Source of the DNA: an uncultured Bacillota bacterium
GTDB lineage: Bacteria > Sysuimicrobiota > Sysuimicrobiia > Sysuimicrobiales > Segetimicrobiaceae
NCBI GenBank assembly: GCA_963804645.1
Contig: CAWDRG010000011.1
Span: 1 to 64,000 of the forward strand
Length of the DNA: 64,000 nucleotides
Reading direction: 5' to 3'
The notes beneath the pieces are model-generated. The model was not told the DNA's origin, did no database searches, and saw only the letters and a program-made list of their open reading frames with translations. Below, one piece after another: positions 12,534 through 18,013 of the stretch (the first letter of the stretch is position 1; each line of letters starts with the position of its first letter). A program made the translations under genes and the position numbers.

Positions 12534-12983
12534 TTAGGCCGCTTCGACCGTGACCTTGTAGCCTAACCGTTCGAGCCGGTTGACTGCGTTGCGCACCACC
12601 GCTTCCTTCTTGCGCTCATCGTAGTAGTTGGCGCCCAGGTCCTCATAGGTGACACCGTCCCGCAAGACGTGATAGGCGATTTCCAAGATGTGGCGCCCCA
12701 CAGCGATGGCGGCCCGATTTCCCCCACGGCGGGCGGCGATCCGCCGATAGATGGCGCCGAGGTAGGTGGCCTTGGTCCGTCCTGCGGCCCGCCCCGCTTC
12801 TGTGAGGGTCCGCCGGAGGGTGGGGCTGCCTTTGCGGGTGCGCGCCCGGCGGCGTTTCCCAGCACTCTCATTGCTGCCTGGACTCATCCCCGCCCAGGCC
12901 GCCAGTTGGGCGGTGGTCGGAAAGCGCGTCATATCAGTGCCGACCTCGGCCACGATCACCTCAGCCACGTGTTGATTCACTCC
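12534..12983 (-). pseudogene. IS110 transposase, C-terminal half
   Basis: GVNQHVAEVIVAEVGTDMTRFPTTAQLAAWAGMSPGSNESAGK...AIAVGRHIL (Transposase_20-type, catalytic Ser motif). Confidence 0.9.
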
Positions 12984-12996
12984 CGGGACAGTGGCT

Positions 12997-15057
12997 TCAT
13001 ACTACACCTCCGGCAGTAGCCTTTTGGAGTGACGGTTTGAGGTGCACGGGGGTGGCGGTCCTCTGGCGACACGCCTCTTCGACCGCCGGAGAAAAAGGAA
13101 CACACAAGCGACCGCTCGTGTCGCGACGCGCTGCAAGCTTGCCTGCGTGGATCCAATCGTATACTGTCCATTTGCTGACCCCCAGTCGGCGGACAACCTC
13201 GCAGACCGTCAGCTCTCCTGGGCGAGGCTGAAAGGACGATGCAGGAATGTGGTAGGTGTGGCGGATCCAGCGGACAGATTTCACATCAAATGGCCGCCCC
13301 CCTTTCCGGGTCATTCCCGCCGTGTTGAGTGCGGTGACGATCTCATCATCCTGCTGCATCGCCAGCGCCCGAATCAGATCGACGACCGCACCCGGCGTCC
13401 GTTGAAGATCGCTGGCTGAGGCAGGGCGCTGGACGACGAGCTCCTCAGTCGCACCCGAGCGCCAGCGAATGCCGACGCCTACACGCGCACTGCCTGGAGC
13501 GGACCGTATCGTTACGTCCGCGACGAGCGCGCGAAGAATCCGCTTGCGGTCTCGGGCCGAGGTCGTAGGAGCAGCCCACAACGCGGGCACGTTGCGAGCG
13601 AGCGCCTCCAATTCTTGGCGCGATGGCAGCGGCGGCGCCTCCGCGCGCGCCCCCGCTAACGCGGTTTCCGCTTCCGCCAATGCGACGAGCGCAGTTTCCC
13701 ATCGTTGCTCCAGGCTCCGCGCCACCAGGCGGTTCTCCGGCTCACACTGATGGAACGCTCGCTCCGCCCGCGCCGCCTCATAGCGCGCCCGCTCCACCGG
13801 GAGTTCAGCGGCCCGGATGCGATTGGTCCGTCGTGCTGCGATCTCATCGGCGGCCTGGAGTGCCAGAGCAATCTGGTCTGTCGTGACCACGTCTAACATC
13901 CGCCGGGCCACGGCATCATCGATCACATCCGCCCGAACCGTGCGACACTGCGGAGTCTGGAGGTGCTCGACACGGGAATAGGAACAATCGTAGGCGGCCT
14001 TTCCGGAGGCATAGGAAGCATACCTCGGCGTCATCATCCGGCCACAGCCGCCGCACACGACGATCCCTTGCAGCAGCGCCTCGCCTTCCCGCGCAGGGCG
14101 TGCGCCTCCGCTCGTGTGGTTATGCGCCAACCGGTCCAGATTTGCAAGATAGGTCTCCCAGCTGATGTACGCGGGGTGATGGTGAGGGAGAACCACAAGC
14201 CATTCCTCCCGCGGAAGCTCTACTCGCTTCCGCCGAATTGAGCCATCCGGCTGTACGATGCGCCGGCATCGGTATCGTCCAAAGACGTAGGTCCCAGCAT
14301 AGACCGGGTTGGAAAGCATGCCAAGCACCCGGTAGTACGTGAGCCGGCCCCACCGGATCTCTCCCGTCCAGACGCCCCCGTGCACTCGCCGAGGAAACGG
14401 ACGCCGGCGAAAGATGCCCGCCGCGCCATATGCTGATCCGCTGGCCTCGAACGCGGCGAAGACGTCTGTGACGGCCTGCCGGATCTCCTCGTCCAAGTCC
14501 ATCACGGTACGGCCGTCCTGATCATACACGTAGCCGACTGGCAGCGGAACGCGTAATTCACCACGGGCCGCCGCGGCACGTTTCGACTCCTGCAACCGCC
14601 CGGCGAGGATATGAAGCTCTGCTTCGGACATTGCGCCCTTCAAGCCCAACAGGAGCCTGTCGTTAAAATGTTGCAGATTGTACACGCCGTCGGCATCGAT
14701 GATCAGCGTGTCCGTCAGGTTGCAGAATTCCAACAATCGTTGGAGGTCCGCGGAACTGCGGGCTAACCGCGAGACCTCCAACCCCAAGATGGCGCCGACC
14801 TCGCCCAGGCACACCCGACTGACGAGCTCCTGAAACCCCGCACGGGTGGTGCCGCTGCGACCGGACAGGCCCAGATCGGCATCGATCACGAGGATCTTGG
14901 ATGCTTCCCACCCCAATCGGGTGGCTTCCTCCGCCAGTGCATACTGCCGGGCGGTCGACTCGGTGTGTTCGCGCACCTGGGTCATCGTGGACTGTCGCAC
15001 ATACACGATTGCCAGACGCTCCCGGTGAGTGGGCGTGATCGTCCTCGCGTCGCTCAT
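12997..15057 (-). CDS. Large serine recombinase (resolvase + recombinase + Zn-ribbon + C-terminal HTH)
   Basis: AIVYVRQST (catalytic Ser), DLGLSG, EVSRLARS, LLQGIVVCGGCG...YDC, C-terminal excisionase-like HTH (EVVRRLGVSKWTVYDWIHAGKL). Confidence 0.95.
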   Translation of the reverse strand: MSDARTITPTHRERLAIVYVRQSTMTQVREHTESTARQYALAEEATRLGWEASKILVIDADLGLSGRSGTTRAGFQELVSRVCLGEVGAILGLEVSRLARSSADLQRLLEFCNLTDTLIIDADGVYNLQHFNDRLLLGLKGAMSEAELHILAGRLQESKRAAAARGELRVPLPVGYVYDQDGRTVMDLDEEIRQAVTDVFAAFEASGSAYGAAGIFRRRPFPRRVHGGVWTGEIRWGRLTYYRVLGMLSNPVYAGTYVFGRYRCRRIVQPDGSIRRKRVELPREEWLVVLPHHHPAYISWETYLANLDRLAHNHTSGGARPAREGEALLQGIVVCGGCGRMMTPRYASYASGKAAYDCSYSRVEHLQTPQCRTVRADVIDDAVARRMLDVVTTDQIALALQAADEIAARRTNRIRAAELPVERARYEAARAERAFHQCEPENRLVARSLEQRWETALVALAEAETALAGARAEAPPLPSRQELEALARNVPALWAAPTTSARDRKRILRALVADVTIRSAPGSARVGVGIRWRSGATEELVVQRPASASDLQRTPGAVVDLIRALAMQQDDEIVTALNTAGMTRKGGRPFDVKSVRWIRHTYHIPASSFQPRPGELTVCEVVRRLGVSKWTVYDWIHAGKLAARRDTSGRLCVPFSPAVEEACRQRTATPVHLKPSLQKATAGGVV

Positions 15058-15142
15058 GCGCGTTCCCCCCGGCGGCGAGCGCGGCCTCGAGCATGTTGGC
15101 CAGCGGCGCCACGAGTTCGCTCGTCGCGCCGCTGAACCCCAC

Positions 15143-15490
15143 TCAGGTCAGCTCCCCGCGGGTCAGCAGTTCCAGGTTGATCGCCGAGATCTCCGCCAGC
15201 GTCGCCTCGATGCGGGCGGTGAGCATGACCCGGCGGCGTACCGCCGCCGCCAGCGCCGCCGGAATATACAGGAGACGCCGTCCCGTTCCCCGCCGGACCG
15301 TCAGGAACACGTACGGACCGTGCAGCTCCCCCCGCGCGCACCGGCAGCCCGGTTTCCCACACCGCCGGTGCTGGATTACCAGCGCCCCGTGCATGACCGC
15401 CTCGAGCGTCGGGAGGCTGCGTGCCCGTTGGGTCCGGCGCGCGCGTAATTGCCTCGTGCTGAGCTTGGCGAGTGGTATCTTTTGTATCAT
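15143..15490 (-). CDS. DUF6788-like small basic Zn-binding protein
   Basis: GALVIQHRRCGKPGCRCARGELHGPYVFL...LYIP motif, typical of DUF6788 proteins next to transposases/recombinases. Confidence 0.75.
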   Translation of the reverse strand: MIQKIPLAKLSTRQLRARRTQRARSLPTLEAVMHGALVIQHRRCGKPGCRCARGELHGPYVFLTVRRGTGRRLLYIPAALAAAVRRRVMLTARIEATLAEISAINLELLTRGELT

Positions 15491-15519
15491 TGGTACCAAA
15501 GATATCACCTGCCGCGGGA

Positions 15520-15801
15520 AACGTCAAGGGGTGCGACAGCACCGCCACCACGCGGAGCACCTCCACCAGAATGGAGGCGGTGAGAGGGTGTGGCTCCGGA
15601 GGGGCGCCGCGATCGGTAAAAGCTTCTGGCAACGCAATACTGCCGGCTGGCCCGGCATCACAAATGTAGATACGTCCACGAGTGGCGTAGCGGCGTGTGA
15701 CCAGTATGGGAAGTCGCTGGTCCCTCAGCGGATGAAACGGATGGGTGACAACGAGGGAATCCGAAAGACTACTGACTGCACTCGTAGTTTGCGTGGACCG
15801 T
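15520..15801 (-). CDS. DUF5372 (Y4bD)-like ORF lacking a start codon in the integrated state; frame stays open to 15054
   Basis: ...SDSLVVTHPFHPLRDQRLPIL...SIALPEAFTDR; no ATG/GTG/TTG ahead of the THPFHPL motif, and an in-frame TGA lies just across the junction. Confidence 0.7.
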
Positions 15802-16575
15802 CGGGATCGTGTCGAGCTGCGTCATCTGGGCCTCGAAAGGGACGAGGCGGGCCGTCACCTCCGCATCCAGGGCCGCGATCTGCTGGTCGAGATGTCGAAT
15901 GTGCTCCAATTGGAGCCGCAGCATGAGGTGCTGATGCCGGGTGAGCCGCCCGCGCAATGCGTCGACCAACTGCTCTTGCGTGGCCCGCAACCGGGGATCC
16001 GCGAGCGCCGCGATGTCCTCAGGACTGCGCTGGCCCGTCGCGAGGGCCTCCAGCATCGCGCGGCCGGATTTGCCCAGAATGTCGGTCACCACCGACCCAA
16101 GTTTAATGTTGCCACCCTCCAAGACCTTGTGGATGCGGTTGGTTTCATCTGCCCGTTCGCTGACCATCGTGATGCGATATCGGATCAATTCTCGCAACTC
16201 TCGCTGCGGACGCGGAGGGATGAAGCTGGCCTTCAGCAGCCCGTGCCGCATCAGGTCGGAGATCCATTCCGCATCGTGCACATCCGTTTTGCGCCCCGGG
16301 ACGGCTTTCATGTGCGCAGCGTTCACGACATACACCGTCATGCCCGTAGCTTCCAACAGATTATAGAGCGGCTTCCAGTAGACCCCGGTGCTTTCCATGG
16401 CTACGTGCGTAATCTGCAGCGCCTGCAACCACTCCATTAGGAGGAGGAGCTCCGAGGTCGTCGTTCCAAAGGTCCGAGTTTCGCTGCTGGCCGGCACCAC
16501 CGCGTGGACGGTCACGGTTTTCTTGTGCACATCGCATCCTGCACACCGCTCGTACAGCACCTTCAAGTTCCCCAC
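15802..16575 (-). pseudogene. IS110 transposase, N-terminal half (DEDD RuvC-like domain)
   Basis: GTG start after GGAGG; CAGCDVHK, VAMESTGVYWKP, PGRKTDVHDAEWI. Confidence 0.92.
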
Positions 16576-16797
16576 GGCTATCCTCCCTGCGACGGTTCGC
16601 GGCGATCCGTATAGAGGAATTCTCCTCCGCATGCTCGCCCGAAGGCGGCGACAATGCGTGGTGCGCCAGATCGCCGGGGTCAGACTCCCATCCACGGGCT
16701 CTCGGCACCAAGGAAACTTCGACCTCTCGTCCCCCGCCGCAGTCATGTCCTTCGATGGGGTGGGCCGATTTCATTCTGCGTGGTGCTGGCTATGGCC
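16576..16797 (-). ncRNA. Candidate IS110 bridge-RNA-encoding non-coding end
   Basis: ~220-nt non-coding region upstream of the IS110 recombinase, the position known to encode bridge RNA; structure not folded here. Confidence 0.45.
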
Positions 16798-16830
16798 AGC
16801 ATGGGGGGCTCCCCGAAAGGGGGAGGTCGG

Positions 16831-18013
16831 ATGCCTTGGAAGGAGTGTTCGGTCATGGACGAAAGAATGCAGTTCGTCGCGCGTCGACTGGCGGGTGAGC
16901 CGATGGCGGAACTGTGCCGAGCGTTTGGGATTTCCCACAAGACCGGCTACAAGCTCTTCGAGCGGTATCAGGAATGCGGCCTTCACGGGCTCACGGACCG
17001 CAGCCGGCGTCCGTATCGCTACGCCAACCAACTGCCCTTTCAAGTCGAGAACTACATTCTCAATGTGAAGCGCGAGCACCCCAGCTGGGGGGCGCGGAAA
17101 ATTCGCGAGCGCGTGACGCGCCGGTTCTCGGGGATTCCCCATCCCCGCGAAGAGCACGATCCATGCGGTGCTGGATCGTCACGGCCGGGTGGAGCGTCGC
17201 GGTCGGATGCGGCGGCGGGCTCAGGGCACCCCCTTGTCGCTCGGGCACCGTCCGAACGAAGTATGGTGCACCGATTACAAAGGCGAGCTCCTGCTTGGCA
17301 ATCACCACTACTGCTATCCGCTCACGGTCACCGACCACGCCAGCCGGTTTCTGCTGGCCTGCGAAGCCCCCTCGTCCACCAAAGAACCCTACGCGGTGAC
17401 GGTGTTTGAGCGGCTGTTTCAGGAGCGCGGGCTCCCGGCCAACATCCGCAGCGATAACGGCGTCCCGTTCTCGTCCGCGCACGCCCTCTTTCACTTGAGC
17501 AGACTGGCGGTCTGGTGGTTACGCCTCGGCATTGGCATCGAACGTATCCAACCCGGCCATCCCCAACAGAATGGCCGGCATGAACGCGTGCACCTCACGT
17601 TGAAGAAAGAAGCCACCAAGCCCGCCGCGGCCAACTTCCTGCAGCAGCAGGTCCGGTTTGACAAATTTATCGACATCTTCAACAACGAACGCCCGCACGA
17701 AGCGCTGGGCATGAAATGTCCGGCGGAAGTCTACCACCCGTCCCAACGTCCCTACACCGGCTTGCCGGATATCGATTATCCGCTGCATGACAAGACCATC
17801 GTGGTCACCCAGTGCAGTCGCATCTGTCTGGACAACCACAAGATCAACTTCAGCCAGGTTTTTGCGGGACAAGCCGTCGGCATTAAAGAGGTGTATGATG
17901 ACATCTGGCTGGTCAGCTTTATGGATTATGACCTAGGGTACTTTGATCTAGAGACACGAGTGCTCGAACCGCTCGAAAATCCGTTCGGCCCGAAAGTGTT
18001 ACCTATGTCTTAG
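16831..18013 (+). pseudogene. IS481-family transposase, +1 frameshift at ~17140
   Basis: MPWKECSVMDERMQFV HTH N-terminus; rve core WCTDYKG / IRSDNG / QQNGRHER; ends KVLPMS within the right repeat. Removing one C from ATTCCCCATC restores GIPIPAKSTIHAVL. Confidence 0.9.

Follow-up and report, generated by a model that had tools for sequence, protein, structure and literature searches.

The attachment site of a 2.8-kb large serine recombinase element divides its own DUF5372 gene, which may encode a circle-phase cofactor

Results

We analyzed a 64,000-nucleotide stretch of DNA (the window; positions 1 to 64,000 of the forward strand of contig CAWDRG010000011.1, GenBank assembly GCA_963804645.1) from an uncultured Bacillota bacterium that GTDB places in the Segetimicrobiaceae of the Sysuimicrobiota. 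The window harbors an element of 2818 bp on the minus strand (12985-15804), in whose frame all readings in the window are given, with genes for a DUF5372 protein, a DUF6788 protein and a large serine recombinase (LSR). We found that the DUF5372 gene is divided between the two ends of the inserted element, with the start signals at one end and the body of the gene at the other, and that joining the ends at the attachment site attP restores a single open frame. We consider it fairly probable that the attachment site is part of the gene in a functional sense, such that DUF5372 acts as a cofactor of the LSR while the element is a circle and integration resets the gene.

The LSR open reading frame (15057-12997) terminates in a TGA that is overlapped by an ATG (13000-12998), forming the sequence ATGA. 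This terminal ATG lies inside the P arm of attP, 14 nt before the crossover core, and is preceded at a distance of 6 nt by a Shine-Dalgarno (SD) sequence, GGAGG (13007-13011), that also codes for the last LSR residues. In the integrated element the frame (12977-13000) enters the flanking DNA and encodes only MKPLSRE before a stop. An earlier reading of the window from its letters alone (the sequence-only reading) had described this GGAGG-N6-ATG and its short integrated product, and the coordinates could be read directly as described.

The body of the DUF5372 gene (15525-15803) begins at the opposite end of the element and has no start codon of its own. It consists of a linker (15803-15747) and a domain (from 15749), with the T codon of a THPFHPL motif at 15746, and was identified by alignment with 21 relatives, a fold model and a match to the Pfam family PF17342 (DUF5372; E 1.7e-8; 34.8 bits, cut-off 25; positions 1-49 of the 78 in the profile). 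A separate profile search gave 36.9 bits over positions 1-52. From the stop upstream as far as a TTG at 15632, deep inside the domain, the integrated frame contains no ATG, GTG or TTG, which agrees with the claim of the sequence-only reading that a DUF5372-like frame without a start codon is found here. When we joined the two ends by script, the frame was open and gave the same peptide that had been proposed for a join at TCCCG, within which the CC crossover lies. The core falls between codons 5 and 6 of the joined frame, and the crossover is therefore inside the element's own open reading frame. These results confirm the split arrangement of start and body at attP.

The ends of the element were fixed by three observations. 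First, the element splits a gene for an IS110-family transposase, with the 5' part at 15805-16746 (PF01548, DEDD_Tnp_IS110, E 4.6e-32, matched in 15769-16746) and the 3' part at 12534-12984 (PF02371, Transposase_20, E 1.4e-16, matched in 12534-12980). Second, another copy in the same genome (L002, at G000:C15, 239299-242115) has identical ends and a different flank, an IS3-type orfA with HTH_Tnp_1. Third, in a metagenome contig a related IS110 gene is free of the element: there, 12983 is joined to 15802, with 2818 bases skipped and 5 ambiguous letters. Comparison of the two copies narrowed the crossover to CC, which is present at both ends in both copies (12985-12986 and 15803-15804 in the window); the length of 2818 bp counts a single CC. 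Insertion was precise, as judged from both copies, the empty-site joint and the mirrored arms: the same 2-bp core is found at both junctions, and attP is an imperfect palindrome. Arm comparison placed the P arm, the half-site at the LSR end, at 12987-13008, and its imperfect mirror, the P' arm at the DUF5372 end, at 15781-15802, where its codons supply the residues immediately following the junction (the RRS.. stretch).

Start signals that point outward at the end of an element could also serve the host target, by restarting translation of the 3' part of the interrupted gene. The reading frames led us to reject this explanation, which we regard as extremely unlikely: the terminal ATG opens a frame of 7 codons that is not the one used by the 3' part of the IS110 gene, and in relatives inserted in group II intron reverse transcriptase (RT) genes the RT frame starts at the core (offset 0), one base off the ATG frame.

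We collected relatives of the element by tblastn over one genome per species. The search found 233, of which the best 80 loci were kept, and 43 distinct elements with credible ends were counted. Loci L039, L042, L050, L062, L066, L076, L078 and L086 were left out of the 43, since fuzzy matching gave no credible P arm and their cores disagreed, as was L091, whose left end is cut by a contig end; nine THPFHLL loci of one genome were read apart. The relatives come mostly from metagenome-assembled genomes of Solirubrobacterales and other Actinomycetota, with a few from Chloroflexota, Rokubacteria, Gemmatimonadota and Myxococcales and one from an isolate, Amycolatopsis acididurans. Relatives are akin to each other and the length classes described below represent few events, and none of the family counts is to be read as a probability.

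Across the family, the inner arms of attP form a perfect palindrome, ACCGTC-NN-GACGGT, around the 2-bp core, and an imperfect mirror reaches about 22 nt to either side. In most elements the core is CC, and subgroups have GA, CG or TC. Exactly 14 nt before it there is a start triplet, which was ATG in 30 of 43 elements and TTG in 12 (one had neither). From this ATG or TTG on the LSR side, the junction frame is open into THPFHP in 42 of the 43 elements; the exception, L067, has one additional A in an AAA homopolymer. The frame across attP is thus not random among the homologues, a question on which the sequence-only reading had made its proposal depend.

The two arms differ in their translation signals. 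The triplet is preceded at 4-16 nt by an SD-like motif in 42/43 arms on the LSR side and in 3/43 mirrored arms, and a triplet that cannot serve as a start was found in 1/43 and 7/43, respectively. Relatives whose LSR stop is 111-340 nt upstream (L075, L085, L088, L089, L090) or 9 nt upstream (the L028 group) also retain the SD and ATG, which are therefore independent of LSR coding. The linker from arm to domain measures 56, 59 or 62 nt and is in frame every time. Among 52 distinct linker sequences, stops occurred in frame 0 in a single one (the row of L091, later left out), compared with 7 and 20 in the other frames. Internal start codons, the other point raised in advance, proved not to be conserved: 17 of 57 distinct linkers, that of the window included, have no internal ATG, GTG or TTG, and just 2 of the 94 start-like codons inside linkers follow an SD-like motif. 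The SD asymmetry, the independence of the LSR stop, linker length, linker stops and the internal-start and non-start counts are all independent of the geometry of the site.

The arrangement was also found at more distant types of attachment site. In elements with a GG core, L126 (genome G046, from the phylum of the window) and L133 (on a plasmid of Burkholderia sp. PAMC 26561), the LSR end supplies GGAGG or GAGG and an ATG whose frame continues into the body of DUF5372 at the opposite end. Elements with a CT core and different arms (L128 and L129, in G050 and G020) are likewise in frame, and their integrated ATG frame stops directly after the core. Plasmid pNGR234a of Sinorhizobium fredii NGR234 has two identical copies, from which the ends could be placed at a common CCTT. 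The frame is continuous, and by eye this site has an ATG with no mirror in the other arm. A copy on pSymA of S. meliloti 1021 keeps the SD and ATG, while the internal GTG used for NGR234 by the annotation pipeline PGAP reads GCC. The ends of one further locus, L127, could not be fixed, and it was left out of the count; one guess at its ends put the ATG out of frame. Cultured strains with a copy are S. meliloti 1021, S. fredii NGR234, Burkholderia sp. PAMC 26561 and Amycolatopsis acididurans K13G38.

Several observations weigh against the functional reading, and some of them count in favor of an alternative. The first alternative, which we consider unlikely, is a coincidence of site and coding sequence, in which ATG and GGAGG derive from the half-site (..GT(A/T)TGA..) and the LSR tail, the junction frame has no function, and integrated copies make DUF5372 with internal TTG, GTG or near-cognate codons as starts. 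The triplet of the mirrored arm is ATG as well in 34 of 43 elements, where it is read as the CAT (His) of RRS.HT. Because the geometry of the half-sites fixes the distance, an in-frame ATG is no evidence by itself when set against the other arm, and the independent evidence on the frame rests on the three linker-length classes, which amount to few events. Some start-like codon is found in 40 of 57 linkers, and PGAP annotates internal GTG starts. At the sixth codon ahead of the T of THPFHP, Leu is encoded by TTG in 27 distinct linkers and by CTG in 1 (L019-L087). This bias is odd for G+C-rich genomes, and it may reflect an internal start without an SD in a subgroup or a constraint on the DNA. 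Coincidence does not account well for SD-like motifs that are nearly confined to the P arm and persist with the LSR stop far upstream, for linkers that remain open and in frame, or for the startless linkers, the window's among them, and the internal candidates that lack SD-like motifs. It is also at odds with the loss of the NGR234 internal GTG in S. meliloti 1021 and with the unmirrored ATG of the NGR234-type site.

A second alternative is that DUF5372 in the window is a decaying remnant that has lost its start and its stop, so that the element moves without it and the ATG matters only elsewhere, if anywhere. The window frame has no stop for 230 codons after THPFHP, unlike all relatives, which stop 71-95 codons after the T. 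The continuation (15054-15524, about 157 extra codons, where more than 70 relatives have a stop) overlaps DUF6788 in another frame and closes with a TGA that overlaps the ATG of the LSR (ATGA). The Pfam match, as given above, is limited to the first 49 profile positions. Copies in the genome may be decaying, as the second one has small deletions and a third has no DUF5372. However, the window DUF5372 aligns over its full length with its relatives, including 18 invariant columns, and its fold was predicted with a confidence (pLDDT) of 79.9. The missing start is the norm of the family and no defect of the window copy, and contigs of 4 sequencing runs from 4 studies contain near-identical copies of the element, with flanks that vary between samples. 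We rate the remnant as very unlikely.

The circle was sought in sequence data, and these searches likewise stand on the opposing side. A degenerate pattern of the attP junction had 32 matches in metagenome contigs, all of which were chance matches and none of which had DUF5372; the same pattern gave 0 matches in the element's own genome and 0/5 in five genomes with several copies, and Logan contigs of the 4 runs contained no joint leading from one end of the element back to the other. Since no attP junction was found in the contigs or assemblies searched, the circle is something we infer. The family clearly moves, as seen from nine independent insertions in one genome, two in the genome studied here and the variant flanks in other samples.

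The position of the candidate promoter is also relevant to the circle. A pattern scan found a promoter-like site, TTGACG-N17-TATCTT with a TG before the second hexamer, at 15499-15527, 3' of the DUF5372 domain and just 5' of the DUF6788 ATG. Two such sites occur in the region, compared with 0.5 expected, and this was the only one found on the minus strand near DUF5372. Promoter-like hexamers stand at the same place in L018, L084 and L091 (by pattern) and in L016 and L093 (by eye). Because DUF5372 lies upstream of this promoter-like site, it can be transcribed from it only around a circle. A terminator-like hairpin at 13121-13102 might halt such read-around transcription and is a further objection to the functional reading; 3 hairpins of this kind were found, compared with 1.9 expected.

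We modeled the DUF5372 protein alone and with the LSR. The LSR (12997-15057, 686 residues) was defined by domain matches and an alignment of 32 LSRs, and has Resolvase (16-167; PF00239, 3.7e-19), Recombinase (195-311; PF07508, 1.6e-11) and zinc ribbon (328-387; PF13408, 1.6e-10) domains, a coiled coil at about 400-480 (by eye) and a C-terminal HTH_17 (616-648). The model of DUF5372 has four strands, a C-terminal helix and a disordered N-terminal linker. Foldseek found nothing in the PDB at E <= 0.001; the weak top rows were SH3-like barrels (PsaE, NdhS, eS4 and the SH3 domain of Lck). A sequence search of the PDB returned only designed 'Pizza' propellers, with 0 passing stretches.

A complex of the 686-residue LSR with a 93-residue piece of DUF5372 scored 0.70 in three runs, while the best of 3 controls scored 0.01. 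The mark used for this score was reached by 116 of 157 solved complexes and by 2 of 215 mismatched pairs, counts that are rough, as custom alignments were used. The runs shared at least 80% of contacts, and the pLDDT of the partner was at least 73. Because no solved relative was found by sequence or fold, it is unlikely that the score reflects a structure already known to the predictor. The modeled interface involves LSR residues 334-341, 366-370 (zinc ribbon), 390-406, 477-518 (coiled-coil stems) and 529-539, and DUF5372 residues 21-26 (the HPFHPL motif) and 67-90 (the C-terminal helix). Known recombination directionality factors (RDFs) bind at the junction of DBD2 and the coiled coil, and predicted binding at this place has been used to find RDFs, according to PMC12286644. 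The model supports predicted binding of DUF5372 to the LSR at the junction of zinc domain and coiled coil, the RDF site. The idea in the sequence-only reading that the accessory protein could control directionality gains from this predicted placement on the zinc domain and the base of the coiled coil.

The genes between DUF5372 and the LSR vary. In the window the middle gene encodes DUF6788 (15143-15508; PF20586, E 1e-21), with the ATG at 15490 as the more likely start. Around this ATG (15490-15488) is an inverted repeat (15476-15504, with arms 15504-15494 and 15486-15476, found by reading the sequence), and a similar repeat, CTTGTAT..ATG..ATACAAG, was visible on inspection in many relatives; it is a possible operator. 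In other subgroups the stop of DUF5372 overlaps the start of the next gene, and the middle genes include an extra ORF of unknown function or a helix-turn-helix protein in place of DUF6788. The constant pair across subgroups is DUF5372 and the LSR.

We also recorded the targets of the family, which are conserved coding motifs of other mobile elements. These include group II intron RT genes at ..RPLGIP|T.. (RVT_1 and GIIM), ISL3 transposase genes at ..IGV|DE.. (in the subgroup with a GA core) and a tyrosine-recombinase gene (in the subgroup with a CG core), along with the IS110 and IS3-type transposase genes of the window genome. One genome has nine copies, each in a different group II intron RT gene and all with the same ends. 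The orientation is usually that of the target gene; the RT gene on the Burkholderia plasmid is annotated on the other strand.

The other copies in the genome of the window differ from it to different degrees. The second copy has 8 substitutions and 4 deleted bases relative to the window copy. The deletions fall in G runs inside DUF6788 and at about codon 11 of the LSR, where the invariant His11 is lost, and represent either decay or homopolymer errors in the assembly. The third copy (L003, 1060-2140; G000:C9, about 1098380-1099460) is decayed: it has lost DUF5372 by deletion and carries an IS110 fragment fused to its DUF6788. It contains a tract of about 1.1 kb that is almost free of C on the plus strand (GC skew 0.93-1.0, GC 26-30%), with nearly every C of the window LSR gene changed to A or T, which could be due to strand-specific hypermutation or to an assembly artifact. 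Beside the interrupted IS110 gene in the window, on the plus strand at 16654-18013, are two overlapping frames with the look of a frameshifted transposase and an integrase-core motif (by eye). The neighborhood is a nest of insertion sequences.

DUF5372 is annotated by PGAP as the 'Y4bD/Y4pK family' and occurs in 47 plasmid records and 438 cluster representatives at E <= 0.001. The N-termini set by gene callers are inconsistent: among 106 representatives with the motif, 49 start at most 8 residues before the His, and the called N-termini of the remainder run 9-150 residues into the flanks. A search of IMG/VR for relatives of DUF5372 gave 50 pattern matches, 0 of which were confirmed. The entry 'no annotated gene' under matches in S. 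meliloti was not used, as NC_003037.1 has a single feature and the PLSDB gene tables are incomplete. The names DUF5372, DUF6788 and y4bD/y4pK were not found in the literature searched (main texts, without supplements), which agrees, within that scope, with the statement in the sequence-only reading that no earlier description was known.

Discussion

The anatomy of the element, its conservation and the movement of the family are read from sequence and the binding is a model prediction, whereas formation of the circle, translation from it and the direction in which DUF5372 acts are inferred. Together these data suggest the following cycle. In the integrated element, the SD, the ATG and five codons would stand at the LSR end (attR) and the startless remainder of the DUF5372 gene 2.8 kb away (attL), upstream of the internal promoter-like site. 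Excision by the LSR would join the ends, so that attP carries the complete gene directly behind that of the LSR, coupled to it by the ATGA overlap. A transcript from the promoter of DUF6788 and the LSR that runs around the circle would then allow DUF5372 to be translated. The protein, predicted to be a small SH3-like barrel with a C-terminal helix, would bind the zinc domain of the LSR and the base of its coiled coil, and might bias the LSR after excision, favoring the capture of a new target or disfavoring the back reaction. With integration the gene would be split again and the system reset.

An RDF of the canonical kind is required while the element is integrated, and it prevents integration. 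DUF5372 does not appear to be makeable from the integrated element, as the integrated frame has no start, and the same is true in 17/57 relatives. Were a canonical RDF produced only once the element is excised, it would prevent re-integration, which speaks against the cofactor reading; the effect may thus run in either direction. We take excision to be independent of DUF5372, because the gene appears untranslatable when integrated, a 2.8-kb circle without replication genes must re-integrate and the family clearly moves.

One version of the cofactor reading, possible but doubtful in our view, is that DUF5372 is an 'inverse RDF': throughout this widespread family the LSR would excise the element without it, DUF5372 would be present only together with attP and, bound where the zinc domain meets the coiled coil, would switch the LSR to integration, and integration would then destroy its gene. 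If this were true, directionality would be set by the recombination state of the DNA, in elements specialized in the invasion of genes that belong to other mobile elements. Another possibility is that the split gene encodes a canonical RDF which, made from the first circle, acts in trans to excise sibling copies and keeps the vacated site from being re-occupied, leading to a burst of excision instead of helping integration. The predicted binding site is the RDF site, and many genomes harbor several copies, one of them nine. On the other hand, the factor would be missing at the first excision, a 2.8-kb circle that neither replicates nor permits its own integration leads nowhere, and the genome of the window has only two copies, so that we find this explanation quite unlikely. 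We continue to favor the reading in which DUF5372 acts in the circle phase as a cofactor of the LSR.

LSRs are used as one-way tools for genome engineering, and how their direction is set is an active question. If the circle-phase reading is true, directionality would be coupled to the state of the DNA without a separate regulator, with only the excised form encoding the predicted cofactor. The split arrangement also matters for annotation, as DUF5372 genes are called with arbitrary starts or none and PGAP chooses internal GTGs.

Within the same Pfam family, Y4bD and Y4pK of pNGR234a in NGR234 are likewise encoded at the end of an LSR element, in the same position, and are annotated with an internal GTG start and no function. 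Among other elements that excise by an LSR, Tn4451 and Tn4453 of Clostridium, whose LSR is TnpX, reportedly form a promoter for tnpX in the circular intermediate, as Lyras and Rood are said to have described in 2000. The window element resembles Tn4451 in that the joining of ends in an LSR-driven excised circle creates an expression signal. The two differ in what is assembled, which is a promoter of the recombinase in Tn4451 and, in the window element, the junction of a ribosome-binding site, start codon and five codons with the body of an accessory gene; moreover, the recombinase in the window has a promoter-like site of its own.

ICEclc and ICEKp1 carry terminal signals, Pcirc and P3'end respectively, that reach across attP to a gene at the opposite end, and do so only in the excised form (PMC13023037). 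The placement of signal and gene at opposite ends, joined only in the circle, is shared with the family studied here (42/43 relatives). The signals of ICEclc and ICEKp1 are transcriptional, belong to elements with tyrosine integrases, act on int and split no open reading frame, whereas in the window element a translation start, not a promoter, is joined. The large serine integrases of phiC31, SPbeta and others have RDFs, gp3 in the case of phiC31, according to PMC5814800 and PMC12286644. Like these RDFs, DUF5372 is a small protein of the same element and is predicted at the junction of DBD2 (the zinc domain) and the coiled coil. Unlike them, and in spite of the need for an RDF to be available when integrated to trigger excision, DUF5372 has no start in the integrated state, and it has no solved relative in sequence or fold.

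Attachment sites within an element's own gene have been described in other settings. In mycobacteriophage BPs, attP is inside the repressor gene, and the products of the integrated and free forms differ, with 103 and 136 residues (PMC4557955). The window element likewise has attP within one of its genes and codes differently when integrated and when free. In BPs, the 3' end of the repressor gene is cut off, both forms are translated, and the integrase is a tyrosine enzyme; the window element instead loses the 5' end with the start signals, and its integrated form should yield no product. In the 'suicidal' integrases of the SSV type, the att site is in the integrase gene, which is intact only in the circle, and a review (PMC8371274) calls this exclusive to archaea. 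A site inside a recombination gene that is intact only in the circular form is common to both systems. In SSV, it is the integrase gene itself that is fragmented, and the enzyme is a tyrosine recombinase, while in the window a bacterial LSR remains intact and the gene of its predicted cofactor is split. If our reading is true, the element would be a bacterial serine-recombinase counterpart of the archaeal split-integrase and mycobacteriophage split-repressor arrangements.

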